This document shows positions 15,650 to 63,100 of a stretch of 64,000 bases of DNA, in pieces. Numbering within the stretch: the stretch's first letter is position 1; each line of letters begins with the position of its first letter. The stretch covers positions 1 to 64,000 of IMG/VR virus record IMGVR_UViG_3300033153_005726. One strand, 5' to 3'. The notes under the pieces were generated by a model. It had not been told where the DNA came from. It was given only the letters and a program-made list of their open reading frames with translations, and did not search any database. A program made the translations under genes and the position numbers. Origin of the DNA: a virus (lineage: Duplodnaviria; Heunggongvirae; Uroviricota; Caudoviricetes).

Positions 15650-16045
15650 ATGATTATTATAACGAAAGTAGAAACAATCACTGTTGACCGTGATCCTTAC
15701 GAGGTTTTACACCAAGCCATGCCAAATGGTTTTTGCACACCAGATTTAACTGCACCCCCTATGGAATGTGAGGTATTCAGTGAACTCATACACGGTATGC
15801 GTTGGCGTTGGCATGATAGGGACAATGATATTGACATCATTGTAGGTGTCAGTGGCGAAGCGGAAAAGATACTTAACCTTGGGTATGGTATAGTTGAAAA
15901 CCTGAAGAAAGAAACTAACCGCCTTGATGATCTGGTCATGATGCAGGGTATAAACATAAAAGACCAAACCAAAACCATAAAAAATTTACGTGATGCTTCC
16001 TTTTGGCAGCGGTTCAAATGGGTATTCACAGGGGTGACAGAATGA
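15635..16045 (+). CDS. hypothetical protein
   Basis: ORF track; ATGA overlap with thyX start. Confidence 0.35.
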   Translation: MGLFIMIIITKVETITVDRDPYEVLHQAMPNGFCTPDLTAPPMECEVFSELIHGMRWRWHDRDNDIDIIVGVSGEAEKILNLGYGIVENLKKETNRLDDLVMMQGINIKDQTKTIKNLRDASFWQRFKWVFTGVTE

Positions 16046-17775
16046 AAATAGTACAACCGACGGCTAAAGTATGGGGAGAATGTCCTACCAATATTGATGA
16101 AGCTATTGTGTGGATTGAACGTGCTGGGCGTGTATGCTACCGCTCAGAAGATAAAATCATTGAGGGTTCAGGTAGAAAGTTTGTTGATGGGATTGTCAGG
16201 CGTAAACATTTTTCAGTAATTGAACACTCAAATTTCGTTGTCCGCACCAAACCCCTTACTTCTCCACGTAAAGAAATGGAAAAGTTGCGTAACAAATACG
16301 CTACTCCATTCTTGCGTTTTTTATTAAAAGGTGATAGAGTATATATCGGTGGTAATTTTAGAGCGTGGATGGAAATGCTTAAATTAAATACTATTGATGA
16401 GTTATTTGATTATTCCTCTAATGATGGACTTAAACTAATCACTAATCACACTGATATCCCTAAACGCCTTAAAATGGTCACTGCTGAGTTTTTAACTGAT
16501 AGGGCAGTTACCCATGAACTTGTAAGACATCGACCTTCAAGTTATTGTTTAACAGGTGATACACTGATACATCACTTTGCTAATGAAAAAAATACAAATT
16601 CAACTGGCAAGAAAAGAACTATTAAACAATTATATGAATATAGCCAAGATCAACGTAAAGGGAGACTCAAGCTCATATCATTAACTGGTATGGATAATGA
16701 TGGTGAATTAATACCAGTACCAATAAAATCTATAATTAAATCTGGTGTTAAAAAAGTGTATAAATTAGTGACAGCTAATGGTAGAAAAATAAAAGCAAGC
16801 AGAAAACATAGGTTTTGTACTAAAAATGGTTGGAAACGTCTACATGAACTTACTGTCGGAGATTCTATTTTATGTAATGGTATTGAGGTGTCCAGGGAAT
16901 ATATTAAACAAAGGTATCTTATAGATAACTTACAGAGGAAAGACCTTGCAAAAGAAATAGGTATGTCTGATGTATGGTTAGGTAAAAAAATAGCCTTATG
17001 GGGGTTACAAAAACCAAAATCACAATATCCAGGACGTAAGGCAGGACATGGTAATCCTGGAATGCATAGCGAAGAAGAAAAAAAAGCCATTTCAAAACGT
17101 ATGAGTGGTGAAAATAATCACAGATGGAATGGGGGTGTGTGGAAAAATGGAAACACTCAATGTGTGAATAAGTATGATATCTCAAATGAATATTGTGTGT
17201 GCGGTATAAAAGCAGAAGAGCGACATCATATAGATAAAAATCCGAATAACAATGAACCTGATAACATAGAGTTTGTTTGCATCAAGTGCCATAAAGCAAG
17301 ACACTTTGATAAAGTTAAAATAGTATTTGAGGATGAGATAATTTCTATAAAATATGCTGGAAAAGAAGAAACCTATGATATCGAAATTGATCATCCATGT
17401 CATAACTTTATTGCAAATGGTTTAGTGGTTCATAATTCACAGGAATCACAACGATATTGTGCTTATCGCAAACATCTTGAAGTTATTATGCCTTGGCATT
17501 ATGATGGTAATAATCAATCTGCATGTTTTCAAATGTGGAAACAAGGAATTGAGTACTCAGAAAAAGCATATAAATATTTACTACAAAATGGAGAAAAAGC
17601 AGAACAAGCACGTAGTGTACTTCCCAATTCAACAGCAACGAGAATTGTTACAACTGCTACAGTTAAAGAATGGGAACATATCTTTATGTTACGTACTTCA
17701 GCAGCCGCATATCCTGGTATCAGAAACATAATCAATCCAGTAAAGTTGGACTTCCAAGAAAATAATTGGATATAA
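16042..17775 (+). CDS. thyX: flavin-dependent thymidylate synthase ThyX interrupted by an in-frame intein (precursor 578 aa; exteins about 281 aa)
   Basis: ThyX signature RHRxxSxxxxSxR is split: ...ELVRHRPSSY | C... ...VHN | SQESQRY...; C-extein ...ARSVLPNSTATRIVTTATVKEWEHIFMLRTSAAA is ThyX-like; GGGTG RBS before ATG 16042. Confidence 0.75.
   Translation: MKIVQPTAKVWGECPTNIDEAIVWIERAGRVCYRSEDKIIEGSGRKFVDGIVRRKHFSVIEHSNFVVRTKPLTSPRKEMEKLRNKYATPFLRFLLKGDRVYIGGNFRAWMEMLKLNTIDELFDYSSNDGLKLITNHTDIPKRLKMVTAEFLTDRAVTHELVRHRPSSYCLTGDTLIHHFANEKNTNSTGKKRTIKQLYEYSQDQRKGRLKLISLTGMDNDGELIPVPIKSIIKSGVKKVYKLVTANGRKIKASRKHRFCTKNGWKRLHELTVGDSILCNGIEVSREYIKQRYLIDNLQRKDLAKEIGMSDVWLGKKIALWGLQKPKSQYPGRKAGHGNPGMHSEEEKKAISKRMSGENNHRWNGGVWKNGNTQCVNKYDISNEYCVCGIKAEERHHIDKNPNNNEPDNIEFVCIKCHKARHFDKVKIVFEDEIISIKYAGKEETYDIEIDHPCHNFIANGLVVHNSQESQRYCAYRKHLEVIMPWHYDGNNQSACFQMWKQGIEYSEKAYKYLLQNGEKAEQARSVLPNSTATRIVTTATVKEWEHIFMLRTSAAAYPGIRNIINPVKLDFQENNWI
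16546..17436 (+). mobile_element. intein (297 aa) with embedded HNH endonuclease and HTH, inserted in the ThyX catalytic motif
   Basis: Starts CLTGDTLI (intein block A), ends GLVVHN (block G) followed by +1 Ser; internal CVCGIKAEERHHIDKNPNNNEPDNIEFVCIKCHKARH is an HNH/zinc motif; LIDNLQRKDLAKEIGMSDVW is HTH-like; removing it restores a contiguous RHRPSSYSQESQR motif. Confidence 0.7.
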
Positions 17776-18773: not shown

Positions 18774-19136
18774 ATGAACACAATAGCAACATTCAAACTA
18801 TGCAAATTATCCGACAAGAATCTCCTGCAAAAAGTAGATAAGGGAACTGATAAAATGTACAAAACTGGAGAGATCCCAACCAGGACGAGACTAAAAGAAG
18901 AACTTAGGAGAGAGTGTATGGCTATGGGAGTTATTTTATGCGTTGACTGTGGACTACCAGAGCAAGATTGTACTTGCGAGGTGGAAGTTGAATACCGCAG
19001 ATTAAAAAAAGGTGAAAAAATATTGAAAACTGATGAATACCTTGATGATGACCGGTGGGTATTAACAACGTGCGCTGGAGACTTGGCACCAGATCCGCAA
19101 TACACTTGTCATCGAGAGTATAGGCGTAGGCTATAA
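18774..19136 (+). CDS. hypothetical Cys-containing protein
   Basis: ORF track. Confidence 0.4.
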   Translation: MNTIATFKLCKLSDKNLLQKVDKGTDKMYKTGEIPTRTRLKEELRRECMAMGVILCVDCGLPEQDCTCEVEVEYRRLKKGEKILKTDEYLDDDRWVLTTCAGDLAPDPQYTCHREYRRRL

Positions 19137-19189
19137 ATAATGCCAAGCTCACGTGGGATCGTGGATAAAGCACGGAACCAAATAAGCAA

Positions 19190-19279
19190 GACGAAAACTT
19201 AAAATAAAGGAAACAGATAATTCGAAGATAGGCGCTGCCTGGGGCCAATCTGGATTTATTTGTTATGTGAGTTGTTATG
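19190..19279 (+). repeat. cassette leader repeat, copy A (AAAACTTAAAaTAAAGGAAACAG ... GGCGCTGCCTGGGGCC ... TTATTTGTTATGTGA)
   Basis: Shares ~35-nt 5' block and ~20-nt 3' block with 20291..20372 and partially with 21039..21119. Confidence 0.5.
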
Positions 19280-19603
19280 GAGAAAGTACCAAGTGTAGGA
19301 AAAACCTACAACTGTTTTGATGACGGGAAGATCCGTGTAAGTAGGCGATATGATATCACGGTAAAATCATTAACTCCATTTGACAAGGCCGACAGCCACA
19401 CGCTTAATATTTGGAAAAGTGAAGTGAAGAGCTGCTACTGGCTTTACAACACAGAAACCGATTTCTTTGTGTTGGGGGTTCGAGACGATGGTGAAAAAGA
19501 GACATTTGTCAGAACTGTTGATGGTGGATGGTTTGGTATAGGTGGTTTTTTGAATTGCGGAAGATTAGATATTGATGGTAAGTGCAACACGCTTGACACA
19601 TAA
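19277..19603 (+). CDS. hypothetical protein (cassette gene 1)
   Basis: ORF track; ends in conserved ...ACATAACGTTTTA. Confidence 0.45.
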   Translation: MEKVPSVGKTYNCFDDGKIRVSRRYDITVKSLTPFDKADSHTLNIWKSEVKSCYWLYNTETDFFVLGVRDDGEKETFVRTVDGGWFGIGGFLNCGRLDIDGKCNTLDT

Positions 19604-19741
19604 CGTTTTAAATCACCGGCTGGCCATGGGGCTACCGTGATTTTATAGCGTGGCAGAAACTTAAACAAACAACCGGAGAACGGGCGTGTGAGCCAGTCGT
19701 GTGCATTTGCTTGTTATCTTTTAATTTTTGAGGGTTTAGTA

Positions 19742-19933
19742 ATGAACAAACAAAACGCAGCAATAATAAAAAGAGAATATGCCCAAGATGGCAAGAAACT
19801 TATCACTGTTTGTGGGCAAACTGGGAAAAAGGTTGGGAGTGCCGACTGTGAAAGAAATTGCAAATATTTTCATTCTTCGGAGCATTTTTACAAGACCATA
19901 AATTGTTATGACCCAGATAGAAATTTGTTTTGA
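19742..19933 (+). CDS. small Cys-containing protein (start at internal Met of track ORF 19688)
   Basis: GAGGG RBS before ATG 19742. Confidence 0.35.
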   Translation: MNKQNAAIIKREYAQDGKKLITVCGQTGKKVGSADCERNCKYFHSSEHFYKTINCYDPDRNLF

Positions 19934-19975
19934 AGATAACGTTTATACAAGCCGCCTTGAACGGAGTAACTAAAA

Positions 19976-20236
19976 ATGAAAAACGAAACTAAAGTAACCC
20001 CGGAAGATAGCTCAAAGAAAGGCGCTGCTCGTGGTCTGCTTGATACGATTGTTATGTGGTTGCATATCTTTATGTTGATTATTGGCGCTCCTGTGTTTTC
20101 GGTTCTAATTGGACTGATGGAAGCAAGAGATTATGGGAAATTAGCAGTACGAGATTTCACGATAGGGTTCTTGTCGTATTTTGTTAATTTATACACCGAA
20201 ATAAAGAAAGTTGTGTCTATCACTGTCCACATATAG
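19976..20236 (+). CDS. small membrane protein (cassette gene; N-terminus MKNETKVTPEDSSKK shared with 20687 and 21430 genes)
   Basis: TM segment WLHIFMLIIGAPVFSVLIGL; carries the conserved 29-nt motif at 20010..20038. Confidence 0.45.
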   Translation: MKNETKVTPEDSSKKGAARGLLDTIVMWLHIFMLIIGAPVFSVLIGLMEARDYGKLAVRDFTIGFLSYFVNLYTEIKKVVSITVHI

Positions 20237-20290
20237 CAGCCTGTATCAGCGGAAATGAGAAGCATAACCGCTAAACTTGATACGAAGAAT

Positions 20291-20372
20291 AAAACTTAAA
20301 CAAAGGAAACAGGTAATTCAAAGCCGGATCTCTCGTTTTCCGACTGAATTTATTTGTTATGTGATTTTTATG
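20291..20372 (+). repeat. cassette leader repeat, copy B
   Basis: AAAACTTAAACAAAGGAAACAGGTAATTCAAAG ... TTATTTGTTATGTGATTTTTATG. Confidence 0.5.
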
Positions 20373-20633
20373 AGTGATTTTACACAAGGTGTCGCTGGTG
20401 GGTTGAGACGAATGAATATTCAGCCTGATGCTTTTTTGTTTTGTGAAGATGATGGTGTTACGTTTGATGAAGCTGAAATTCTTGGTATTCCCGTGTTTCA
20501 TTCCGCACTTATAATAAACACATATACAGATCTAAATATTCCATTTATTCCGATCTGGAAGGCGGAAAGTGATTATATCATTCAGAGAGGATTATTTAAT
20601 GACGGGTATGAGCAGAATTGCAATGCAACATAA
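20370..20633 (+). CDS. hypothetical protein (cassette gene; start at internal Met of track ORF 20277)
   Basis: Conserved leader ends at this ATG; 3' end ...AACATAACGTTTTAG. Confidence 0.4.
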   Translation: MSDFTQGVAGGLRRMNIQPDAFLFCEDDGVTFDEAEILGIPVFHSALIINTYTDLNIPFIPIWKAESDYIIQRGLFNDGYEQNCNAT

Positions 20634-20686
20634 CGTTTTAGCTCACGGGATTTTTGCAATTTAACCACTGAACGAGGAATGAAAAT

Positions 20687-20986
20687 ATGAATGACGATAA
20701 ACCCAAAACTACGCCCGAAGAAAGCGCTGGCAAAATTCCGCTGCAGCGCCTTGTTAGCCAATTATTTGCAGTTGCTTATGAGGATGACGGCCCAAGCGGT
20801 ATTTGTGGGCAAGCTTGCAGCATCACAAACCCATGGCGCAAACTGTATCTTTTTGAAACAGAAGAAAAGATGAGGGAGTTTGTAAGGAAAATTGAGCAAA
20901 CTACTGGAAGATTAAGAGGACGAATCGTTGGCATGTATTATCCAGCGCCTGGATCAGTAGGTGATATCAGTTTTATTTCTGGCTAA
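20687..20986 (+). CDS. hypothetical protein (cassette gene; N-terminus MNDDKPKTTPEES)
   Basis: ORF track; GAGG RBS. Confidence 0.4.
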   Translation: MNDDKPKTTPEESAGKIPLQRLVSQLFAVAYEDDGPSGICGQACSITNPWRKLYLFETEEKMREFVRKIEQTTGRLRGRIVGMYYPAPGSVGDISFISG

Positions 20987-21038
20987 CGTTTCAATAACCT
21001 GCTGCAAGGATACGAAGCACTGAACGTGGCTAAACCAC

Positions 21039-21119
21039 AAAACTAAATACGGAGGACAAAGCCCAATAAACCACGCTGCTTGCGGTCTGCGTTTATTGGC
21101 TTGTTATGTGATTTATATG
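21039..21119 (+). repeat. cassette leader repeat, copy C, containing hairpin CCAATAAAC(20-nt loop)GTTTATTGG
   Basis: Loop carries CGCTGCTTGCGGTCTG; followed by TTGTTATGTGATTTATATG. Confidence 0.5.
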
Positions 21120-21371
21120 GATTTACCCCCATTGAGAAAAACAGTGAGGATAAAATTTTGGTCTTTGCGCAATGGTGTTGGCCCCAATCTTGGCGTTATT
21201 TTTGACATGGACGAACAAGTTGAACGTGAAGCGTATCGTGTCCGTGTCGAAGATGGTTGGAAGTGGCAAGTAAAAGGGCTGAACACCATAAACAGGTATG
21301 ATTCAACCGCAGACATAGACCAGGAAGTATTTGACGAATATGGCAGTGAGCTTGAAGTTGAATACGCATAA
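21117..21371 (+). CDS. hypothetical protein (cassette gene; start at internal Met of track ORF 21096)
   Basis: ATG 6 nt downstream of the ATGTGA mini-ORF; ends ...GCATAACGTTCTAGC. Confidence 0.4.
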   Translation: MDLPPLRKTVRIKFWSLRNGVGPNLGVIFDMDEQVEREAYRVRVEDGWKWQVKGLNTINRYDSTADIDQEVFDEYGSELEVEYA

Positions 21372-21429
21372 CGTTCTAGCTAACCTGCCGCAAGCGAACT
21401 ACCACGAAACTTTGAACAAAGGAAAGACT

Positions 21430-21702
21430 ATGAATAACCCGAAAACTGAGCTCAAAGAAAGGCGCTGCTTGCGGTCTGAGTTAAGCGCCTTGTTATCTGA
21501 TAATAGCTCTGGAGATTTGCTTGATGTGTGGGAGCTGTTTCGTTTGAAATGCCCTTGGTCTGAACATAAAAGATCATGGGATGAAACGGAGTTCTCTTGC
21601 ATGGCTATTCGGTACGGAGGCGGTGCTGGTAGAGAGTGTTCGATGAAGCTGTGCGCCCCTTTTTATTTTGTGAAAACACTGACTGAATGTGCTGCAAGAT
21701 AA
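21430..21702 (+). CDS. hypothetical protein (cassette gene; N-terminus MNNPKTELKE)
   Basis: AAAGGAAAG RBS 5 nt upstream; contains hairpin 21459..21491. Confidence 0.4.
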   Translation: MNNPKTELKERRCLRSELSALLSDNSSGDLLDVWELFRLKCPWSEHKRSWDETEFSCMAIRYGGGAGRECSMKLCAPFYFVKTLTECAAR

Positions 21703-21764
21703 CAGTGTAATAAGTGGAAACTTTCCACTAATACATTTACTTCAACCGGATTAAGTGGAAAACA

Positions 21765-22055
21765 ATGACAGACAAACTATTACCATGCCCGTTTTGTGGT
21801 GGAAAAGCCGACAGCCGGCCACAATATGGAGTTGTTGAATGTATGGATTGTGGTATTGAAAAAGAAGAAGATGACCTACATAGTGCGGAATACTATTGGA
21901 ACACTCGCACTACAACAGTCGAAGAACCACCTGACGTTTTTCAGCGAACAATGAAACTTTGCCCAATATGTGGGAACAAGCGTTGTCCACACGCAACAGA
22001 TGTTAAATATAAATGCACGAATAGCAATCGACCTGGACAATCAGTATCAACATAA
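21765..22055 (+). CDS. Lar-family restriction-alleviation-like zinc-ribbon protein
   Basis: N-terminal ...LLPCPFCGGKA motif and ...AEYYWNTR, characteristic of the Lar family; an extra C-terminal CPICGNKRCPH ribbon. Confidence 0.5.
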   Translation: MTDKLLPCPFCGGKADSRPQYGVVECMDCGIEKEEDDLHSAEYYWNTRTTTVEEPPDVFQRTMKLCPICGNKRCPHATDVKYKCTNSNRPGQSVST

Positions 22056-22655: not shown

Positions 22656-22708
22656 ATATGAGTTGAACAGGGTTCGAACCTGTAATCTCCTGAAGGTGTT
22701 ATCATCAT

Positions 22709-22739
22709 CTACTGAGTTTATTTTGTTTAAACTCAGTAG
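22709..22739. repeat. perfect 12-bp inverted repeat CTACTGAGTTTA(7-nt loop)TAAACTCAGTAG at the convergent junction; candidate bidirectional terminator
   Basis: Lies between the last + strand gene and the stop of the - strand endolysin; no clean T-tract. Confidence 0.35.
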
Positions 22740-22807
22740 GATTTACGCTGGCTCTATTAAGTTACCTGCCACCCAAGTGTTTTCCCAATTAAACTACCAA
22801 CCCAATT

Positions 22808-50800: not shown

Positions 50801-52087
50801 GTTACCTTCAATGTTATTTTTTATCTGTCCATCACCTATATCCCATATAGAATACCATTTACCACCAGCAAGGAAATCTATTTTCAAACTTCCTGGTTGT
50901 GGTAATGGATTGCAACTAAATGTGTAAACAAATCCACGATTATTGGTATCAATTATAATGCCACCAGTTTCAGAAATCTGTTGAGGGGCACAAGCGGGAA
51001 TGTATACAGCAGATCCAGTACCAGAAGAAGTAATACCAGCATCACCAAAAGTGATAATACCTGTATCATATGCTATAGAACCTATTATAGTCCCGCCTAC
51101 AGATGGTGTCCATATATTATTTTGCCCATCATCTTCCAATGCCAGACCACCAGTCCAGCTAAAAGTTTTTGGTAAAACTCCCTCACCGATAAATAATTTA
51201 GCATTAGTGCTTATGCTATATTGAATACTTCTGGTAACAGTTGTTTGTGCATCCTCTGTTTGAATCATTGGTGCTATAGAAACACCAACTCCAGCATCTG
51301 TAATAGCAGTTTCTGAAGCTGCTGAAGGAACTAAAGCTGTTTGTATATCATCTACTTGTATTTGCAATTCACCAGCATTAGCATTTTCAAGTAAATTAGA
51401 AACACCATAATAACGAGAAGCATCTGCTGCAACCGTAGTATATATAGGGGTACTTTCCATATTATTCCAATCATAATAAATTTCAGCCCCATCAAGGTCA
51501 TTTGCTAATTGAGAACCTAATGTGATAGAAATATGATTTCTATAGTAGACATTCTCATCGTCTGTATAAAATTCAGTGAGTTCTGAAGATAAATCTATTA
51601 TACGGACATACTGTTCTGTCACACCTTCACCTAAAACAAGTACATCTCCTATTTCAGGGATAGGCCAATTTGCTAAAGTGATACAAGAAAGAAACGCAGT
51701 GCCAGCATAATGATTGCCCCATAATTTAATATTGGCACTTGGTCCTTTTACAAGATATGCTTCTATACGATCACGAGCATCCTCACGTACACTAAACCAA
51801 TCTTTATTAGAAAAGAAGCAAACCGACACATTAGGGTCTTTTGCCTGTTCAGTTATAATTGTGTGCGAACCATAGTACGTTTCTCTATTTGCAGTTTGTA
51901 CAGCAAGGTAAGCTTTACGCATTGATACCCGACCATATACACGATCAAGTCTTGAAATATCTGGAAACAGATTATTAACAACCCCATCAACAACTTCAAT
52001 AGAAGTCATTTGGCCACCACCTTGATCAGTATCATCAAGACGCTGTGATTCCATTAATTTAATATCTTCTTTATTTATGTCAGCCAT
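47840..52087 (-). CDS. giant tail tip / baseplate hub-like protein (1415 aa; Tal-like position downstream of TMP and Dit-like gene)
   Basis: Position and size; no motif-level confirmation. Confidence 0.4.
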   Translation of the reverse strand: MADINKEDIKLMESQRLDDTDQGGGQMTSIEVVDGVVNNLFPDISRLDRVYGRVSMRKAYLAVQTANRETYYGSHTIITEQAKDPNVSVCFFSNKDWFSVREDARDRIEAYLVKGPSANIKLWGNHYAGTAFLSCITLANWPIPEIGDVLVLGEGVTEQYVRIIDLSSELTEFYTDDENVYYRNHISITLGSQLANDLDGAEIYYDWNNMESTPIYTTVAADASRYYGVSNLLENANAGELQIQVDDIQTALVPSAASETAITDAGVGVSIAPMIQTEDAQTTVTRSIQYSISTNAKLFIGEGVLPKTFSWTGGLALEDDGQNNIWTPSVGGTIIGSIAYDTGIITFGDAGITSSGTGSAVYIPACAPQQISETGGIIIDTNNRGFVYTFSCNPLPQPGSLKIDFLAGGKWYSIWDIGDGQIKNNIEGNESLGSGSVNYDTGSVSITLGAMPDVDSQVLFFWAKPSELYDLSGETLPLKYEFTTENDGVARNTFVFTWVGDGNGPGPANEYGIVDDGNSLLQDAEYDFGDATTWIASTSYELTDEVLPITKNGYTYECTVAGTSNSSEPTWPIVPGSTVDDGGVTWECQLADIGDWSPAASPITVGSIKYATGEVELQPAASQSTPVASEVFTISYNYGDPFTDVFEAPPRDGLGHIHLTLTNTPIVPGTFNILWHTDLEEYDPETRIDMTIDPIYFFKDDGAGNFAGDIDDGSDNWVQGTINYTTGEIMYHPDRISVFPHAVYDWMVTEWMHPGVVESYVFDYIEYLPAASTFPADGSVTCSYCTTDGANFDTYSGTIAPTYTIKPDKYLEIIPGGLHISAAGQHIVDGTNGNLYTHVDGIVGNKTQVGTVNYAQKTFTIISDSINIASMEIDFCAGSGVIDPTMTLVFRAPGAPIRPGSAFIRGTTGGGTLIEGQSDFSGDITGAGIVGHVNFSTGLCKVSFGTWVLDDAEAQAADWYNANTESGGNVWKPYVVRASTILMNCVITSYLPLDPDLLGLDPVRLPLDGRVPIFRDGYIIVVHYSVSSTGEDLGGPQGDDLLSRDASQIDDWEGNPCATQNNNNTLPLAVDHKVEIITDAGATLYPNRDLIEVYALPTAFDTLNGDLTCPKYVPEAGEYTVNLEPLDGTGDDDIRTASVTFLAGFPDNGGTGFGTAHNAMYDGQSTPRDVVILSRIEDMCLASDVQVTGHIAITSALTHSYPADGTLVSSVLPSADLQARAYNEFEQSVWDGTWSDERIDAEPLASYNFVDYPITVTNAPSIKERWLIKFTSTTKVSVIGEKFGVQSLGIVDGNPVDEVKVAELTSEEITAIRAKGAYPGNVSGVYGYPGELDPLCLIIHNKQFPINEEKGITTTNQSYFVIKLDGFGSSWATGNCIRFNTDAANFPLWFIRTTLQAPPTEPVDYYTIQIRGDSS

Positions 52088-53508
52088 TACTGTACCCTCT
52101 TAAATTTTATATGACCACAATCAAATACCCTGCTAAACCCATTATTACGCATATTCTGAATTTCAGTTAAATCTGCATCAAACAAATCCAATTTAGCAGC
52201 CAGTTTGTTTTTCTGGAATTGTTGCCTTGACCCTAAGTAAGAACCCCCATGCACATAAAAATAATTCGGCTGTGTTACTTTATCTAATATAAACCCATTA
52301 TGCGTATAGGAACTTCCAGTGTATACACGTTGATCAACATAAGAATATGTTACCGTGGAATGTGCTAAGAGCCTAGAAAACCCACCAAGTATTGTTGTAT
52401 TTCTTGCTACTACATATCTGACTAACTCACCATCACTAGCTACTATAAGTAAAGCTGCTAATCTCTTCCCTGATATTAATCCTAAGTAAGATGATCCAGA
52501 ACGGAACCCATGTAAATGATGTTTTTCACAAAAATTTCTTGCTACTTTTGGTTCTACTGCCCTTAATTGTAATTTTCTAGCGAATAACCTTTTTTTATAC
52601 ATCCCTAATTTGTTTAAAATAATAGATTTTACTATATCTTTCTTATGCTTCCACTCAAAATCCCAAAACTGCATTAAATGTATATCAAGTGCAGCACATG
52701 CATCTGTTTTATTTTTATGGTACAATTTCCCCTTACCTGTATCTTCTGAGTGCCAGTAAATACCATTATATTCTATCGCCAATTTAAAATCCGGTAAGTA
52801 TAAATCAAGTTCTTTAGGTGCTATTATTTTTCTAGAACGTTCTATAACATGCACATCAAGAGAACGCAACCAAGTGACTAACTCAGATTCACCTTTAGAT
52901 TGCAATGTAGCACATTTTGGGCAGCACCAACCACGCATGTGGTTGGAAGCTATTTGGTCAAATACACCATGATCAGGACATACTATTTTAACAGTGGAAT
53001 GTGTAGTGGTATAAACAACCAAAGAATAATCATACTTATTTCCGTGAATGGCTTTAGACTTTTTAATAAACCCTTCAGTAGTGCCACGCAGGGTATTCCC
53101 ATTGAACTGTAAAGCACACTGTTTACATCCCTTACCACTAGTATGCCCACCAGCCCTTTGTCTAAATCCACCGTGCACAGGACATATTATAATAATAAAA
53201 CCACCATATCCATTGTACACAACTTTTGAATAATCGTATTTATCTCCATGTACTTCTTTAGCTTTTATCAAAAATGAATCAGTGCAATCTTTATTATTAA
53301 CAGAATTGTTTATGTCGGCACATTTTCTACACCCTTGTTTCATATTTATATGGGCAGAAGCTCTCTGAATAAAACTACCATGTACAGGACAAATAATAGT
53401 TACCATAGATTTAGAAGTACCTACAACAGAATCTGAATAATCAAAAATAGTGCCATGTATTTCTTTGGCCCATTTTATAAAATTCTCTGTATTCCATTTT
53501 TTACGCAT
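52087..53508 (-). CDS. DUF559/Vsr-like PD-(D/E)xK endonuclease with three N-terminal zinc-ribbon repeats (homing-endonuclease-like), embedded in the tail module
   Basis: Three repeats of xKAKExHGxKYDYSxVVY...ICPxHGxFxQ...H..GxGCxxC; then ELDLYLPDFKLAIEYNGIYWHS matching the DUF559/Vsr core; TAATG overlap with downstream gene. Confidence 0.55.
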   Translation of the reverse strand: MRKKWNTENFIKWAKEIHGTIFDYSDSVVGTSKSMVTIICPVHGSFIQRASAHINMKQGCRKCADINNSVNNKDCTDSFLIKAKEVHGDKYDYSKVVYNGYGGFIIIICPVHGGFRQRAGGHTSGKGCKQCALQFNGNTLRGTTEGFIKKSKAIHGNKYDYSLVVYTTTHSTVKIVCPDHGVFDQIASNHMRGWCCPKCATLQSKGESELVTWLRSLDVHVIERSRKIIAPKELDLYLPDFKLAIEYNGIYWHSEDTGKGKLYHKNKTDACAALDIHLMQFWDFEWKHKKDIVKSIILNKLGMYKKRLFARKLQLRAVEPKVARNFCEKHHLHGFRSGSSYLGLISGKRLAALLIVASDGELVRYVVARNTTILGGFSRLLAHSTVTYSYVDQRVYTGSSYTHNGFILDKVTQPNYFYVHGGSYLGSRQQFQKNKLAAKLDLFDADLTEIQNMRNNGFSRVFDCGHIKFKRVQ

Positions 53509-54199: not shown

Positions 54200-57100
54200 C
54201 TACGACCTCATCTTTGCTAATGCTAAATCATTAAGTATTGAATCAATACCAGCTTGTGAACCATATAATTCTTCATGCTGTGTACCATTCACTGTTAATT
54301 CAAGTGAATGTTTAACTGATTCTAGAGCGGATTGTCGTACACTATTTTGTACTGTGCCAACAACACCACCAAGATTGAATCCAGGGATCTTAAAGTTGTT
54401 TAGTGCGTCAAAGAAACCAGCACCAAAGTGAGAAACAACGCCCTCTTTCATTACAAACTCGCCAGGGGTGAGAGCCGCCATAATTGAATCTTTTCCTGGA
54501 ATTGATGTGCTTGTATGCGGTACAGAACCACCAGTATTAAAACCAAATAATCCTTTACCAAGACGTTTTAATAATTCTTCAATTGAAAATGTTCTAGCTG
54601 TGCCAACTTCTTCTTTCATATCAGTGGCAGTATCCAAAGCTTTTAATGTATCTTCAGATGATTCACTAGCTAACTTATCTTGAAGGGCAGTTAATTCAGT
54701 TTGCGTTTCTTCTTTTTGTGATTCTGCATCAGTCTCAGCAGTAGCAGAAGCAGAAGCAACAGCATCTTCATAAGATGCAAGTAGGGAAGTCAATGAATCA
54801 GCGAGCGACTCATCAGCAGAATCAACAGAATCATTATAGGATTCTAAATAATCTGCCATGTCCTCTGCATAAGATTCATTCTCATCAGTATTACTGCCAT
54901 CATAACTTTCTAAATAATCAGCTAATGCTTCAACATGATCTTCATCGCGATCAGTTACATCTTCAGCATGATCAGTTGTATAATCACTCCAATCATCATC
55001 ATAATTAGTTTTAGCTTCATCATATGCGGCTTGGGCTTCATCAAGTTCAGCTTGTTTATCAGCCTCTGAAATAATCAAAGCAAGTGAAGAAATATCCTGG
55101 GTACCAGCAATAACGCCAGAAGTATTTGTTATTCCAAGGTCTTCTAATGAAGATAGTGATGAAAGCCAAGTAGACCACTTCTGGGCAGCTTCTTCTAAGG
55201 CTGTTTCTTTTTGGGTGGCGGCAGTGGCGTGATCAATACCATTTGCCATTTGTCTAACCCAATAACCCTCAATGGCACGTTCGTATGTACTCAAATCAGG
55301 TACATCGTACCCTTCATATGGATATGTATTGGACTCACCTCTCCAAGTACTAGTATCGCCATAGTTTCTGCCAGAAGTATTTATGTCTTCGGCAGCTTCA
55401 CGGGCACTGCTACGTGCATCTATTAAATCACCCCATAATTCATAATACTTATCTTTGTATTCATCATCAATATCAGCTTGCTCTTCTTCATAATCATCAA
55501 GGTTATCATTAGAATTTTCATCATAATCTGTTTCAGTATCAGTATAATCCTCAGTATCATCATCTACTGTATCATTATAAGACTCATTCTCATCTTCAAC
55601 ACTATCATCATATGTTTCTTGAGTATCGCTAAGTGTATCAGTGTTACTCTCATCCCTGTCATCTACAGATTCATTATAACTTTCTTTAGCATCTGCAACA
55701 GATTCATCATGATCTTCAGTGGTATCTACTACATCCTCATCATACTCAGCAGTAAGTGTAGCGATTTTTTCTTTTAATTCCTCAGAAATGGCAAGTAGGG
55801 CTGCTTGTTCTTTTGCAAGGATGGCAGCTTGCTCATAACTATCGCCTTGATTAGCTTTAGAAATTAAATCATCATAAATAATGTTGATTCCTTTCGTAGC
55901 ACTATCAAAATCAATAGTATTTATACTACCGCCATAAGCATAGCCATTCACTGTACTCGTAAAGGCATCTGTAAGCCTGTTCACTGACTCAACACCTAAT
56001 TCACTGGTAATGTCCTTTGAACTATTTGCGACCGTATTTTGAAAGTTTACGCTGTCTACATTAAGGTTAACGTCACGGCCTACTTCAGAACCAAACAATT
56101 CATAAAGGCGTTTTTTCATTGAGCCAATAACACCAGAAAGAACAGAACCACCACGTGCGAAATTCTGCACCACACTTGATGAGTCAAAATCAAACTGGAC
56201 TGGTCCACCTTTAGCGAAATGAGGTACGGCCTTCTTTGCCATCTCAATTGGATATGAACCTGAGTTGACCATATCCATAAAGCGTTTACCATATTTCTTC
56301 ACAGCAGCTACTTTATGAACAAACTCACCTTTCATCAGCATGGCAGGTACATCATCTTTACTACCACCACCCCTTGTTATGAATGGGTTGGCAAGTTTTC
56401 TGAATACACCGCCACCTGCATCAAAACCTTGTATTTCTCCACCATGTGCTCTAGCTTCAGAAGGTGGTGACCCTTCAGTTTTATATTTAGTGGTGATGGT
56501 GATAGTTTTATCTTTCAACTTATCAATAGCACTTTTAAGTTCACGGACTTTGTCAATACCAGTTACCTTTGCTATCACTTCTACAGTTTTGTTTACTAAA
56601 GAATCTATAAGCTGTTTTAAAGTAACAACATCCTCAGTGCCAGTTACATTTGCAACAACATCTACAACTGTAGGATTAGCTTGGTCTATTAAACCTAACC
56701 ATTCCTCAAGGGAACGCATATCATCAGAACCATTCACTTTCACATTTACTGTAATATCAGTGCCACCACCAAGTTCTTCTAACTGAGCAACAAACTCAGT
56801 AAAGTCCTCTTGAGAAAGTTGGATTGTTACTTCTGGCACTTCATCTCCAATAGCATTTAGTTTTTCTTTTATTTCATCTATCTTTTCAGTGGCAGGGGCA
56901 GCAGGAGAAGCAGCAAGTAGTAACTGGCCAGTAACCTCAAATGTCTCACCAGCTAGGGTCTGTAATTCAACCTTAGCTTCGTCAACGCCTTCAGTATTAA
57001 CAGCAAGCATTACACCTTCTTCTGGTAACACTTTAGGTAATTCTTCCAGGTCTTGCGTAGCTTTTTCTGTATCAGCCTCAACCTCCATTGTGACAGGTTC

Positions 57101-60100
57101 TTCGACAACCTTTTCTTCAACGTCGTTTACTATTTCTTCAGCTTTATCAGCAGAATCTTGTAACTTTTCTTGATCAATAGTAACTTCTTTTACAATAGGT
57201 TCTTTTAATTTATCAGTAGCTTCTATGGCCTTATCGGCATTTATATCAAGCTCACGCTTCTCGGCAGCTAAATCAAGAGAACCGTTTATTGCACCTAAAG
57301 AATTTATTATCTTATCAGTGGCACCTTCAACATTACTGAAAGGTTCAAATGGATTAGATTGAATATTTTTAATAAGACCCTTTGCAGCTTCTTCTGTTTC
57401 AGCAATTATCCTGATAGGCTTTTTATTATCCATAGTTAATTCTATAGACAACCCATCAACAGTTTCAGCATAATTCAATGCAACTTGGGTCATGTCGCTG
57501 AATACCCTGCTACCATCATCACCTACACCATTAAGGGTATTAACTATGTCAACCAATTTCTGTCTGGGGTCTGATGTATCCATACCCTCAAACATAGTAC
57601 TGAACTTATCTTTTATTGAATCAAGTTGCTTTCCATCTTCTTCAGTGAAAGTGAGAACACTATTGGCACGAAGTTTAGCACTTTCTTGACTGACATAACC
57701 AAAATAATCTTTCAGCTTTGCCCTCATGTCATCAATCTTCTTGCCTTCCTTGGTGCTGATCCCACCATCACTCTTTTTAGACTCAGCTATATAAGCAAGA
57801 AACTCTTGTTTAAGTTCACCGTATTTACCTTTTAATTCATCAACACGGGCATACTCTTCAGGCTTGGCAACAGGTGTGTCAGACAGAGTGCGTTTAGCTT
57901 CTGTCAATTCACTCATCAGTGCTTTATATTCAGTAACAGCTTCACGTTTGAATGTAAGTTCTGTTTCCACACCAACTGGTACACTTTCTGGCATAGCATC
58001 TGATAGGGTTTTCTTTACGTCAGATTGTGCTGGTGCCTCAATTGTTATCTTACCATACCAACCTTCACCAGAAGCTACTATTTCTTTAACAGAACCTAAT
58101 TCATCTTTAATGGTTTGGATAGTTGCTTTAGTATCTGACTGGACTTGCTTCATTCCTGTGCTTATACCGTTCCCAACACCACCTACATCACCAGAAGTTG
58201 TATTAGCAGTCTCACCAGTTTCAACAAGTGCAGCTTTTGCTTCTGCCATGGCAGCAACAATACTTTCAGCAGTTTCTTGACTAGCATCCCCAATTGCTTC
58301 AAATTCTTTAACTACATTGTCAGCAGCCCCATCGTCAGTACTGGCTGAGTAAGAAGCAGTTTGCCCACTTGCAGTTGTTATTTCACCAGTAGCAGCAGGA
58401 TCTTCAGCAGACTTTTTCTGAACCTCATCCAATTTACCTAGCAATTTTTCGTACAAGGCTAATTTTTTCTCATGTTCCAACACCTCTGTTTTAATGTTGT
58501 CCATCTCGAGTGTGTGGCGGGCTGCTTCTGCTTCTTCAATAGTTGTGTACAATTCTCTGTGCACACCCATTTCATCAGCAATTGATTCCCGCATTTCTTC
58601 TCTTGCATCAATCAAATCTTGCTGTTTCTTAGTTACATCTTCCGCAGCCTTTATTTGTACTGTAGCAAGTGCTTCTTCAGAAACACGTTTCTTTTCTATA
58701 GCTCCCTGCTCTGCTTCATAATCACCTACACCCTTCAAGCCACCTTCAGCTTTTTTGAGTACATTTGTGGTTCGAGCCATGGCACTTACAGATTGATTTA
58801 TGTTGCTGTAACCTTCAGCCAAATCCATTGCTTGTTCGGCCTTTTTCTTACCACGCTCTATGATTCCTTTATCATTCTTTTTGATACCTTCAGCAATGAG
58901 GTTATTGGCCTCACCTATTTTTTGTCTGTAGGCACTTTCATCATCACGCTCTTTTTCCCTGTCAGTCATTCCTTCTTGACGGCGCTTTCTTATCTTATCT
59001 TCAAGAGAATCATCAAGTGCAGCAATAGAATCACGTAAATCTTTTTCAGCCTCAAGCCTATCATCAGCTTGTTCAGCAAGGAAATCAGTTAATTCTTCTT
59101 CTATCTTCTCTTTATCTTTAGTTGCTTTTTCCCAAATCTTATCAATATCATCAGCAGCATCCTCTTCAAGATCTACGAGGTCTTCAAGTGCATCTTCATG
59201 TGCATTATTTTCTTTTATTAACCTTTTCTCAGTTTTCTTAATGTCATCCTTAACTTTCTCCAACTTACCATAAGCATCGACTGCCATGGATACTAATTTA
59301 GTATAGTGGGCACGATTAAGGTTTTGGATTACAAGTAGCTGTGCCTTTATCTTAGTGTCATTAAGTGTTGGGTTTTCTTTCAGGTCTGCTAAATGTTTCT
59401 GATCAAGTGCGAGCATAGATGCATGGTGCTGTTTTAATGCACTGAGTTTATCTTTTTGTGCTTGAACGAAATTGTTTTTATCTTGAGCTTCAAATAATGC
59501 AATACCCTGTAAACGATCAGCATACGCATTATCAATTACACCTTTCTGGTCATTGTAATGTGTTTCTAAATCAGCGATACGTTTTTTGTATTCAGTAGAA
59601 AGTTGTTGAGTAGTAGATGTTGCATACTCTAAAACAATATCCTGTAACTCTTCTTCAGCTTCCTTGATAGCTTCAGGGTCGGTGCCAGCCTGTTTAAGCT
59701 GGAGAACTCTAGCACTGGCAATATTAATTCTTTCATCAAATGACTTATTAAGGGCTTTCTTTTTCTCAGCGTACCCTTCCTCTTCAGTCTTTGTTTCATT
59801 CTGAACAGCAGCTTCTATTTCTGCATTACGTCTAGCCAATGCATCCGCTATATCATCAACTAAGATATCATAAGTATCAACTATATTTTCAATGTGTTCT
59901 TGTTGATCATCCTCAACCTGTTTATTATGTTGGGTAATAACTTCAGTTTGGGCGTTGGTAGCTGCAGTCTTGGCATCAGTTTTTTGCTGTTCAGCATCAA
60001 TGACATCTTTAAGGTCTACCCCTTTAATGCCAGCCATGTCGTCTGCATGTATTTGAGCAGCAAGATACATGGCAGCTTGAGCTTTCATCTTGGCTTCTAC

Positions 60101-63100
60101 AATAAGACGGTTATGCTCATCTTCGAGGTTAGCATCCCGTGCAGTGGCTTGCTTTAAATCAGCAGTACGTTCAGCCAATTTAGTTTTTATGACTTTAGTA
60201 GCAGCAGTATAAGCAGTGTTGACAGCCTCTACTTTACCTTTAAGCTCATCAGCATCAGATTTCTCATAACCCTCACGCTGAGTTTTTAATGCCTCAAGGT
60301 ACTTACCTTCTGCTGAAAGCATTTGAGTGTGGGCTAACTCAGCAGCAGTAGAATCTGCACCATACATCAGTACAAATCTATCATAGGTAGCCTTACGTAT
60401 TAAATAAGACCTATCGGTAAAATCATGCTCACCGTTTATTTTACGCTCTTTATATTCAGCATCAGTGATTTCATCATTTTCACGTTGCCTTTGCAGTTCT
60501 ACATAATACGCTTCATAGACACTTTTAAGTTTAGCGATACGGGCTTCATCTTCCTTTATTGCTTTTGCAGCATCACCAGAACTACCAGCACCTAATTGTT
60601 GTAATTTTTTGTTGTATTTTAATTGCAACAAGAACGTTTGCTTAATAAGTTCGTCTTTATCTTTATGTTCTTTCTTAAGTGCAGCAGCTTCTTTTTCATA
60701 AGCAGTAACCGCTTTCATGATACCTTTAGCTATTGCAACAGACCTATGAGCAACAGCACGTTCAGTTAAATCAGTGATCTTATTGATCTCATCTTCTTCA
60801 ACTGTGGCAGCTTCTTTATTGATTCTAAACACTTCACTCATGTATACTTCATAAGCTTGTGTCTTTTCTTTCATAACATCAGAATCAGAAAGACCACCTG
60901 CTGATTCATCTAACTTGGCAAGTTCTTTAATTGCTTTCACACGTTGATCGTACACATTCGTAGCTTCATCGTATTCATCAATTAATTCTTGCTTACGTTT
61001 ATCTATACCTTCAAGGACTTCCCCATTAACTAATTTGTATACATCCCTAAACTTTTCTAAAGAAGCCAAACCAGTAGCTTCTAATGTTTTTATTTCTTTT
61101 TCATTATAAAAAGAATCGAATGGAGAATCAAAATCAAGGTTTTCTTTATTAAACTCTTTTTTCCAAGTCCCAATAATTCCTTCAGTAGCTTCTTTTATTT
61201 TAGATTCAGCACTTGCAGCAGAGTCAACTATTTTATCAAAAGCAGCCGACAAGAAATTAATTTCTGATTCCCCTAAATCTAATGTTTGTATACCCTTTGT
61301 AAATTCTTCTATAGAATCACCAGCAGCATGAGAAGCTTTAGCATAAGCAAGTAGCCCTGCTTTAGAAGTAGCTTGCATCTTAAGTGATTCACCTAAAGCA
61401 TCTTTGTACCCCTGCAACTCAGTCCTAAGTTTATTTAGATTAGCACCTGAAGAACTGAAAAACTTTTGCATAGTAGTGCCAGTGGCTTCAATTTCTTCAA
61501 ATCTATCTATATCTTCTTTTAATTTAGTAACCCAGTAAGAAGCAGAATCCACTTCTTTTTTTGATTCACGTAAAGCGTCTGCAAAAGACTTTACCCCTAG
61601 TTCAGCTTTTCCCTGACTCAATTCTTTTTGGACAGCTATATATTTACGAAGTTCGTCTAAATTAGCAGTAGTTTCTTCAGTTACTTCTGCCATAACTTCG
61701 CCTTGTTTATTTAAAGACAAGGTAGTAGCTGGTACTACTTTTCCAAGTTCTATTTCAGCTTCTATCCAAGCTGCTGAACCTTTCTCACCTTCGGTAAATA
61801 CTTTTTCTAGTTCTTCAAGGGATTTTATCTCAGAATTCAATGCATCTACAACTACAGAAGTCTTCTTTGCTAATTCTAAATGGTCTTCCGCTGTTTTGCC
61901 GACTATAGCTTTGTACGCAAAAAAACCAGCTACAGCCACAGCTATAACGGCACCAATGCCAGTAAACATCGTAGCAATCCCAGCAAAACCAATAGTGGCA
62001 GTTCCAGCAGCAGCACCAGCAGCAGTTGTGGCAGTGGCAGCAGTGGCAGCACTACCTGTCAGTGCAGCAAATCCCACTGCTGCTGTTCTTAGCACTGTTA
62101 TTAAACCAGTAAAATATGTTGTAAGAAATTTAACAAATCCCCCCGCCCCTGATATAGCACCAAACAAGGTCATGATCTTAAACAACGCTGTGAAAGCAAC
62201 AGCAGTGCTAAGAAGAACTTGCATAAGGACTTTATTCTCAACAACTAGTTTACCTACTGCAATGGCAATCTCACCAAAAATAGCAGCGATGCCAAGCATA
62301 TCACTTGCCCAATCAGCCAACTGTACTTTGTTTTCTCTAATTGATTTTGTTAATCCACGTATAAATTCTAATACAGTAGGTTCTATTTCACGCCCAAACT
62401 CAATCGCCATTTCTTGCCAAGCAGATTTAATCTGACGTAAAGCACCACCCATACCAGCTTCCATATCACGGGCAACCCTAGCAGAAACTCCTTCAGAATT
62501 CTGCATGGAAACTAAGAATGTATTAAGTGCATCTTCACCTTGATTAATCAAAGCAGCCATTCCAGGTCCAGCACGCTTACCAAAGATTGTGATGATGTCA
62601 GAAACATCTGCACCAGCAACCTTAAATTGATTGAGAATGTCAATCATAGAAAGCATGTCACCACTTGAATCTGTTACTGAAATACCAAGTGTTTCAAGTG
62701 ACTCACTAACTCTCTTAGTAGGCTCAAGTAAACGGGTAATCGCATTACGCAGTGTCATACCAGCTTTAGATGAATGGTAACCAGCTTGAGCCAGACCAGC
62801 AAGTAATGCACCAGTTTCTTCAAATTCTATATTTGCAGCAGAAGCCAGTGGACCAACATACTGAAAAGCAGTACCAAGTTGCTCAAGGTTTGTACTGGAA
62901 CTTGTAAATCCTGTGACAAGTACATCATTGATGCGTCCTAAATCATCAACTTCCATTTTATAACCACGTAGAATGTTCGTGGTTATATCAGCAGCCCTGC
63001 CAATATCCATCATGCCAGCAGTAGCTAATTGGAGTACGTTAGGAAGTGCACCTATGGTTTCTTCAACAGAAAAACCAGCCATTGATAACTGACGAGCTGC

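Follow-up and report, generated by a model that had tools for sequence, protein, structure and literature searches.

What are the repeated elements that lie between the small genes of a phage accessory region, and how were such genes brought together? The question is posed by a 64,000-nucleotide stretch of a Caudoviricetes genome (IMG/VR record IMGVR_UViG_3300033153_005726, positions 1 to 64,000; hereafter the window), in which a segment of 2.6 kb (19137-21760) had been described as at least six small genes, each with a leader assembled from a common set of short blocks and a conserved trailer at its stop codon, in the manner of the promoter-early stem-loop (PeSL) cassettes of T4-type phages (below, the original prediction). 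The genes and the shared blocks are borne out by the analysis reported here, and the count rises to seven open reading frames (ORFs) on the + strand, designated A to G (63-108 aa; 19277-21702), which are separated or overlapped by seven units of 97-133 nt built from those blocks. The region is probably an integron-type gene-cassette array without a nearby integrase (a cluster of attC sites lacking an integron integrase, CALIN), carried in a phage genome and with the units as its attC-type sites; in these terms the trailer is the 5' arm of attC, and the leader is its 3' arm.

Repeated units and the boxes at each gene

The blocks are confined to the array, as had been stated, since nhmmer searches with each unit matched only the other units in the 64-kb window. 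The block GGCGCTGCYYGSGGYC has four matches in the window, all within the array region (0.01 expected), and ATAACGTTYTA has three exact copies, all within the same region, while 7 of the 17 loose matches to TTGTTATSTGA-like sequence fall in 19.2-21.5 kb. The block AAACTTAAACAAAGGAAACAG is present as one exact copy at 20292, as a copy with a 1-nt insertion at 19195, and as partial copies at 19658 and 21407. The single outside occurrence that had been claimed, a related block in the promoter at ~59-69, does not stand: GCTTGTTATGG at 58-69 is a chance match with two mismatches. The promoter-like site itself (TTGACA-N17-TAGATA, 46-75, before the first ORF) contains GCTTGTTATGG, and its likeness to the array boxes arises by chance.

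A property overlooked by the original prediction is that trailer and leader are mutual inverted repeats (ATAAC...CTGCCGCAAGC // GCTTGCGG...GTTAT), the left side reading ATAAC ... TAAC CTG CCGCAAGC and the right side GCTTGCGG TCTGA GTTA ... GTTAT, and thus each inter-gene unit is one imperfect palindrome that runs from nnnnAAC to GTTnnnn. The units, ORFs and terminal heptamers (boxes) are listed below, with the number of complementary bases between the box before each ORF and the box at its stop. Cassette limits were set between AA and C of each unit's left box, with the + strand taken as the attC bottom strand.

19178-21702, + strand: whole array, seven putative cassettes, from heptamer positions, own-end complementarity and strand assignment
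19172-19268, + strand: unit u0, attC-like, upstream of ORF A; ACGGAAC (19172-19178) to GTTATGT (19262-19268)
19277-19603, + strand: ORF A, 108 aa, TAA stop within ACATAAC; box before GTTATGT, at stop ACATAAC, 7/7; cassette A 19178-19603
19598-19719, + strand: unit uAB, ACATAAC to GTTATCT, 122 nt
19742-19933, + strand: ORF B, 63 aa; box before GTTATCT (19713), at stop AGATAAC (19934), 7/7; cassette B 19604-19939
19934-20057, + strand: unit uBC, AGATAAC to GTTATGT, 124 nt; holds the ORF C ATG at 19976
19976-20236, + strand: ORF C, 86 aa, hydrophobic, first 25 codons unit-encoded; box before GTTATGT, at stop GCATAAC, 6/7; cassette C 19940-20267
20262-20362, + strand: unit uCD, GCATAAC to GTTATGT, 101 nt; left arm degenerate
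20370-20633, + strand: ORF D, 87 aa; box before GTTATGT (20356), at stop ACATAAC (20628), 7/7; cassette D 20268-20633
20628-20759, + strand: unit uDE, ACATAAC to GTTAGCC, 132 nt, degenerate; holds the ORF E ATG at 20687
20687-20986, + strand: ORF E, 99 aa; box before GTTAGCC (20753), at stop GGCTAAC (20981), 7/7; cassette E 20634-20986
20981-21109, + strand: unit uEF, 129 nt; among the two best-preserved attC copies
21117-21371, + strand: ORF F, 84 aa; box before GTTATGT (21103), at stop GCATAAC (21366), 6/7; cassette F 20987-21371
21366-21498, + strand: unit uFG, 133 nt, well preserved; holds the ORF G ATG at 21430
21430-21702, + strand: ORF G, 90 aa; box before GTTATCT (21492), at stop AGATAAC (21697), 7/7; cassette G 21372-21702
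21697-21745, + strand: right end of the array, AGATAAC, then AGTGT, then hairpin AAGTGGAAACTTTCCACT; no GTT box

The two well-preserved units have the layouts GGCTAAC GTTTC AATAAC CTG CTGCAAGG ... CTTGCGG T CTG C GTTTATT GGCTT GTTATGT (uEF) and GCATAAC GTTCT AGCTAAC CTG CCGCAAGC ... GCTTGCGG T CTG A GTTAAGC GCCTT GTTATCT (uFG). The arms of uAB form an imperfect palindrome (AAAT-CAC-CG.CTGGC // GCCAG.CGTGTGCATTT); u0 has a degenerate left arm together with AAACTTAAAATAAAGGAAACAG and a local hairpin, and uCD contains AAACTTAAACAAAGGAAACAG and the hairpin AACAGGTAATTCA/TGAATTTATTTGTT. ORF C has an alternative start, an ATG at 20052 within GTTATGT.

The variable bases of the boxes pair across the gene, the box before an ORF with the box at its stop, and not within a unit, where the two boxes of one contiguous unit show a lower match (6, 6, 6, 4, 4 and 5 of 7). 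In a permutation test that shuffled partners, the observed pairing gave p = 0.009 for the window alone and p = 5.5e-5 when a second phage-like contig (L010, described below) was included, and for 14 cassettes pooled none of 100,000 permutations reached the observed match (p <1e-5). As a control, a 7/7 pair was found at only one of the 192 other ATG-initiated ORFs of the window, and this pair (12395/12639) lies within coding sequence and was taken as chance. Hall and co-workers reportedly defined cassette boundaries in 1991 through a start box that is complementary to the cassette's own far-end box. An integrated cassette has both boxes of the attC of its circular form, one at each end, and integron gene cassettes are classically recognised by complementary heptamers at their own two ends. 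Two other readings, a start-stop ATGTGA mini-ORF and a dif/XerCD-like site, were considered, and were dropped when the boxes proved to be variable R boxes.

The seven proteins are mutually unrelated (best E 0.03, 10-sequence database), and the shared blocks that fall within ORFs C, E and G do not keep one reading frame (for example GGC GCT GCT in C and AGG CGC TGC in G), and therefore conservation is at the level of DNA and not of protein. These results speak against codon-level conservation of paralogues in one frame, which the original prediction had named as an outcome that would count against it. They likewise tell against an origin from a single small gene that was copied in tandem together with its flanks and whose coding copies then diverged. 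Such a history would suit a row of seven units that are alike in size (328-426 bp) and have related flanks, but it is scarcely credible for proteins that lack similarity and blocks that change frame, or for A and E, whose large families are distinct and occur elsewhere with no such flanks. The genes had also been called ORFan-like; none of the ORFs A to G matched Pfam or PHROG, and the term fails for A, E and G, which have 93, 128 and 1 homologues, respectively, in large metagenomic protein sets.

Bacterial counterparts, attC architecture and strand

A two-arm search pattern taken from uEF and uFG retrieved nine metagenome contigs and two genuine contigs of metagenome-assembled genomes (one Pseudomonadota, one Desulfocapsa). 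A match in Vibrio hepatarius (L022) was discarded as chance, as it lies inside an lnt-like gene. Eight of the retrieved loci contain a near-identical element of ~131 nt, and a second subtype, to which L010 and the window units uEF and uFG are closest, is found in L016, L021 and L023, the last of which was rejected as an array, none being obvious there. In every retrieved locus the similarity is bounded by AAC on one side and GTT on the other, the sequence beyond being unrelated, and uEF and uFG align end to end with the retrieved elements in nhmmer searches (E 1e-6 to 4e-9). The outer boxes of the elements are complementary to boxes located 0.6-3 kb away (L014, L015, L017, L019, L020, L013, L021), for example TTCTAAC/GTTAGAA in L014, TTATAAC/GTTATAA in L015 and, across a 3.1-kb restriction-modification (R-M) cassette, GTTCTCT/AGAGAAC in L017. 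These far boxes end or begin textbook attC hairpins unrelated in sequence to the element, and neighbouring classical attC hairpins are present in L013-L021 and L024. The cargo of the bacterial cassettes comprises TIR, PIN, DUF2283, GmrSD, Mrr, and S and M subunits of type I R-M systems, and is typical of chromosomal integron cassettes. Box pairing with textbook attC hairpins, together with such cargo, argues on sequence grounds that the element family is an attC family in use in bacterial integron arrays. Two recombinases encoded in L016 were considered as a possible integron integrase and rejected, since they score as XerC/D-like and far below the IntI cut-off. L014 also has a group II intron domain V/VI-like match (2396-2467, - strand; 36.6 bits, under the 40-bit threshold), and in L020 an int-alpA RNA (560-632, - strand; 45.1 bits) adjoins the attC element.

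Near-identical palindromic copies of ~130 nt in unrelated flanks in metagenomes could also be produced by small non-autonomous transposable elements inserted between genes, either miniature inverted-repeat transposable elements or palindromic elements of the IS200/IS605 type. However, neither target duplications nor a transposase accompany the copies, the four variable bases beyond AAC/GTT change in step with the distant end of the neighbouring gene and not with the element, and the neighbouring sites of the same arrays are ordinary attC hairpins of unrelated sequence. An origin by transposition is accordingly regarded as highly improbable.

An attC site is an imperfect palindrome of 57-141 nt bounded by AAC/GTT, which in the R box is the only stretch conserved in all sites; it further contains unpaired spacers of 5-6 nt, an L box and a variable centre, and carries extrahelical bases on one arm (16, optionally 20, and a T at 23/24, with 6 bp from the first to the last) (Nivina et al. 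2016, PMC5027507). The seven window units lie within this size range and have these boundaries, and the AAC/GTT triplets of their boxes are invariant. By eye, uEF, uFG, unit u1 of L010 and the bacterial members share 7-nt boxes, 5-nt spacers (e.g. GTTCT / GCCTT), a second paired box with one extra base in the 3' arm, an unpaired base 20 and T24 on the 3' arm, and then an 8-bp GC stem; the G at 16 is absent from them.

Because the unpaired base 20 and T24 lie on the 3' arm, the + strand of the window would correspond to the attC bottom strand. In all eight bacterial contigs that hold cassette ORFs (8/8), the ORFs lie on the strand opposite to the displayed element, and the neighbouring attC hairpins in L017, L014 and L013 are bulged on the 3' arm when the displayed strand is read, with two bulges 6 bp apart in L017 and L014. 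On this assignment the point of exchange would fall between AA and C of the left box. A crossover between G and TT of the right box had been considered, and was replaced by the left-hand position after the strand analysis. GC and AT skew gave no information as a strand marker.

Several observations weigh against the interpretation of the region as an integron-type array. No integrase or tyrosine recombinase was found among the scanned ORFs of at least 200 aa in the 64-kb window, which covers all but ~22 kb of the source contig, and no intI, attI or Pc was found there, so that the array does not qualify as a complete integron. It is for this absence of an integrase that the term CALIN, and not integron, is used, and any activity must consequently come from the host. 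Measured against RYYYAAC/GTTRRRY, the boxes GTTATGT, GTTAGCC, GTTATAT and GTTAGCT fit at 6 of 7 positions, and GTTATCT at 5 of 7. Most window units fold as single-stranded DNA no better than shuffled sequences (z -1.5 to +1.3), and the arm-versus-arm global alignment scores of the window units are not above those of shuffles; the L010 units and the neighbouring bacterial attC fold end to end. Three of the units (u0, uCD and uDE) have no recognisable 5' arm and are too degenerate for bulge scoring, and part of the array may be fossil or decaying, or may have been reshaped for expression. The bacterial loci were fetched with a pattern derived from the units, so that identity within those 23 bases is given by construction, and the argument rests on similarity outside the pattern and on the neighbours. 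Finally, the strand assignment depends on where the bulges lie and on how the ORFs of the bacterial arrays are oriented, and the neighbouring attC in L015 points the other way.

Translation signals, other carriers and proposed cassette movement

The variable centre of each attC appears to hold the translation start for the ORF of that cassette. ORFs A, D and F have a Shine-Dalgarno (SD)-like AAAGGAAACAG or ACGGAGG ahead of a hairpin, and C, E and G have a full SD and an ATG within the unit (starts 19976, 20687 and 21430), embedded start codons that are presumably used. For E, the first ~22 residues are unit-encoded, and most of the 128 homologues have N-termini that correspond to E residues ~24-29, immediately beyond the box (between L-V and S), indicating that these first ~22 residues are an attC-encoded extension. 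The peptide QRLVS in window E is encoded by the right arm and box of its attC (CGCCTTGTTAGC). Several proteins of the E family (P0097-P0100) have N-terminal extensions ending in (E/Q)R(I/L)VS, the form to which the QRLVS of the window conforms, and the attC-encoded N-terminal arrangement of E may recur elsewhere.

The embedded start codons of C, E and G also favour a different account, in which the units are purely RNA-level signals (conserved 5' leaders that serve as RNase III-type processing hairpins or split ribosome-binding sites) kept for expression and not for DNA recombination. To the same effect, hairpins in u0, uCD and uEF bring the SD-like AAAGGA/ACGGAGG beside the ATG of GTTATGTGA, and a double change keeps the lower stem paired, the window having AACAGATAA/TTATTTGTT and L010 having GGCAATAAA/TTTATTGTT. 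Yet the RNA folds of 5 of the 7 units are no better than those of shuffles, and the units have no Rfam match. Selection for expression also leaves unexplained the complementarity of ORF-flanking boxes ~300 nt apart, the sharp ends of homology at AAC/GTT, and the family identity with bacterial elements that lie in the opposite orientation to their ORFs. As an explanation of the units this account is unlikely, and an RNA-level role is likely a secondary use of the sites and not their origin.

The attC family bounds small ORFs in three other phage-like contigs, L010, L025 and L026. L010, a contig with a gpA-type terminase, contains a homologue of A and two neighbours bounded by units of the family, with boxes that are all complementary at 7/7 (GTTATAT/ATATAAC, GTTATGT/ACATAAC and GTTAGCT/AGCTAAC). 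The gene that follows the "B-type" unit of L010 differs from window B, and A is the only protein that L010 and the window have in common. The RepB-primase element L026/L027 has its A homologue between the boxes GTTAGCT/AGCTAAC, compared with GTTATGT/ACATAAC in the window, and two more cassettes with GTTATGT/ACATAAC come after it. Just upstream of the L026 cassette array, at ~2300-2345, lies a tRNA-like 3' end (GGGGGGTTCGACTCCCTCCCC), which could be an integration site or part of a phage tRNA. The G homologue of L025 is 81% identical to window G and is fused to a different N-terminus via the attC right arm; L025 and the window share the attC right arm, the G ORF and the terminal box, and nothing further. 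In L025, a 148-aa ORF (914-1360) reads through the whole attC and joins a Cys-rich N-terminal domain to the G domain, a possible domain fusion across a cassette boundary, and the attC stem is altered on both sides (CCGTGCAG/CTGCACGG versus CCGCAAGC/GCTTGCGG). No member of the attC family was found in INPHARED phages or PLSDB plasmids. Protein A belongs to a widespread family of small phage proteins, and most of its homologues occur in tightly packed, ordinary phage operons without the motifs (L004, L005, L006, L009, L011, L028). Its predicted structure is confident (pLDDT 90.5), and the model gave no fold match with E <0.1 against PDB and BFVD.

Comparison of the window with L010, L025 and L026 upholds the description of the cassettes as modular and recombination-prone, as the flanks are kept and the cargo differs. 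This is also a property of PeSLs, which inhabit the hyperplastic regions of T4-like myovirus genomes and in which a terminator stem-loop is closely followed by a sigma-70-like early promoter of the form -35 N17 -10 (Arbiol 2010; Comeau 2014, PMC4122927). A PeSL-like origin would make each unit a terminator stem-loop with an early promoter, and would have the cargo swapped by homologous recombination between the repeats. The likeness extends to the presence of short intergenic repeats around ORFan-like genes in a plastic region, to a few terminator-like hairpins in uAB, and to the mini-circles proposed for the movement of PeSL cargo, a similar concept to that of circular cassettes. By contrast, the units described here are 100-130-nt imperfect palindromes with AAC/GTT boxes and no promoter consensus: no sigma-70-like -35/-10 pair is repeated from unit to unit, promoter-like sites in the region number 18 where 18.8 are expected, with none at a conserved position, and hairpins are present yet T-tract terminator-like sites occur in uAB only. 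Homologous recombination, by which PeSL cargo is thought to move, predicts neither the sharp ends of homology at AAC/GTT nor the covariation of a box with the far end of its ORF. In addition, the phage is not T4-like and the units are homologous to the attC of bacterial arrays. The PeSL identity assigned in the original prediction is not retained, and is very improbable.

If the region is an integron-type array, the seven unrelated small ORFs would have been brought in as separate cassettes. A host-cell integron integrase would fold the single-stranded site and exchange strands within the AAC triplet, allowing cassettes to enter, leave and swap as circles; we infer both present-day activity and the source of the integrase. 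With the ORFs on the attC bottom strand, each would, as a consequence, be preceded by its own attC, the variable centre of which would supply the SD and, for C, E and G, also the start codon and the first ~20 codons. Read-through from upstream phage promoters presumably provides transcription. The first cassette probably entered between the present neighbours of the array, a 120-aa gene and a Lar-like gene, where a GTT site adjoined a hairpin. Rejoined without the array, the flanks would read ...GCACGGAA followed directly by CAGTGT..., or, on the other strand, ACACTG followed by TTCCGT, which would form such a site. Integrases are known to use secondary sites of this kind, with GTT next to a hairpin. 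The ends of the array are asymmetric, with a complete unit at the left and only a box and a short hairpin at the right, and this is explained by a cassette that consists of attC and then ORF, with exchange between AA and C.

Genome setting, known systems and biological meaning

The + strand of the window carries replication and accessory genes up to ~22.7 kb (ligase, exonuclease-like, SbcD/Rad50-like, and a thymidylate-synthase ORF with an HNH domain), and the array is positioned at the end of this gene block. The - strand carries the structural genes, including a 3149-aa ORF and a 1415-aa tail-like protein with 32-35% identity to proteins of 40-45-kb Pseudomonas and Ralstonia phages. No nucleotide relative of the window or of the array region was found in INPHARED by blastn with near and distant settings, and scans of IMG/VR with the leader pattern, the two-arm pattern and three neighbouring proteins returned no relatives. 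The neighbours of the array and other features of the window are as follows.

18774-19136: left neighbour of the array, 120-aa Cys-rich ORF
21765-22055, + strand: right neighbour, Lar-like restriction-alleviation gene (PF14354, E 1.9e-9)
22659-22803, - strand: tRNA-like sequence (Rfam RF00005, 40.7 bits, E 2.8e-6), between the last + strand ORFs and a GH108-like lysin gene
16003-17775, + strand: 590-aa ORF with an HNH endonuclease region (residues ~296-437) and a thymidylate-synthase C-terminal region (479-578)
54200-63649, - strand: 3149-aa ORF heading the structural block
52087-53508, - strand: free-standing 473-aa HNH/homing endonuclease gene, between the 3149-aa ORF and the 1415-aa tail-like gene

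The Lar-like gene is indeed located at the downstream edge of the array, as first noted, and because it is not enclosed by boxes it was excluded from the cassette count. The cargo had been suggested to act in host takeover or anti-defence, and it may do so, the Lar-like neighbour being the one indication. A homologue search with the upstream 120-aa protein returned nothing but itself. The products of the two flanking genes are both small, Cys-rich and zinc-ribbon-like, with weak mutual similarity (E 0.003, 10-sequence database). In the tRNA-like sequence, a 79-nt insert with a hairpin of its own lies within the anticodon loop, and ARAGORN makes no call. The 590-aa ORF also holds a short terminase-like, perhaps intein-like, stretch, and its composition suggests a homing endonuclease or intein inserted into the thymidylate synthase gene.

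A cluster of attC sites in a phage is of an already known kind. Integron parts have been reported in 21 phages, including 17 CALINs (called by IntegronFinder, with at least two attC sites each), some of them in virulent phages, and IntI1 proved able to recombine five of the six phage sites assayed (Qi et al. 2023, Front Microbiol, PMC9892861). In common with those CALINs, the array consists of small attC-bounded cassettes in one orientation in a phage genome with no intI nearby, and has anti-restriction-type cargo in or beside it (methyltransferases there, the Lar-like neighbour here). It differs in having seven cassettes and 7-8 putative sites of one sequence family, which is absent from INPHARED phages and PLSDB plasmids, and in ORFs that would lie on the attC bottom strand, three of them starting inside attC.

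Sedentary chromosomal integrons, such as the Vibrio superintegron, resemble the array in their attC of ~120-135 nt, which form one conserved family with core and inverse-core ends, and in the defence and toxin-antitoxin cargo of the bacterial contigs that share this attC family. In contrast to them, no intI, attI or Pc was found in the window, which belongs to a phage and carries phage-type cargo of 63-108 aa, and the orientation of its ORFs relative to attC appears reversed compared with the bacterial contigs. In class 1 integrons, short ORFs embedded in attI and fused cassettes are known, and translation signals of the recombination site serve the downstream cassette; here, the signals would instead lie in the variable centre of attC and recur in several cassettes and genomes. 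What is new is thus the attC family itself, the size of the array, its occurrence in four unrelated phage-like contigs and in bacterial arrays of defence genes, the apparently inverted orientation and the putative embedded starts.

Integrons have been regarded as devices of bacteria, and it was not until 2023 that attC clusters were described in phages. In bacteria, the attC family of the array accompanies anti-phage defence genes, and a family common to phage-like contigs and defence-gene arrays would be direct sequence evidence of one cassette-exchange system of phages and bacteria. The array also offers a site-specific, and not purely homologous, explanation for a hyperplastic accessory-gene region of a phage. 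If the reversed orientation and the start codons within attC are real, a recombination site has been reused as an expression leader. A tentative extension of this idea is a phage-adapted cassette, in which the attC centre serves as the 5' leader, bearing the SD, the start codon and at times a translated linker, and plug-and-play units are traded among unrelated phages and phage-like elements via the host integrase, possibly as the counter-defence side of a shared pool. Some members of the A family are ordinary phage genes and others are cassettes, which opens the unsolved origin of cassettes to comparative study, and, should the phage-adapted cassette prove true, A-family members with and without attC flanks could show the transition from gene to cassette.

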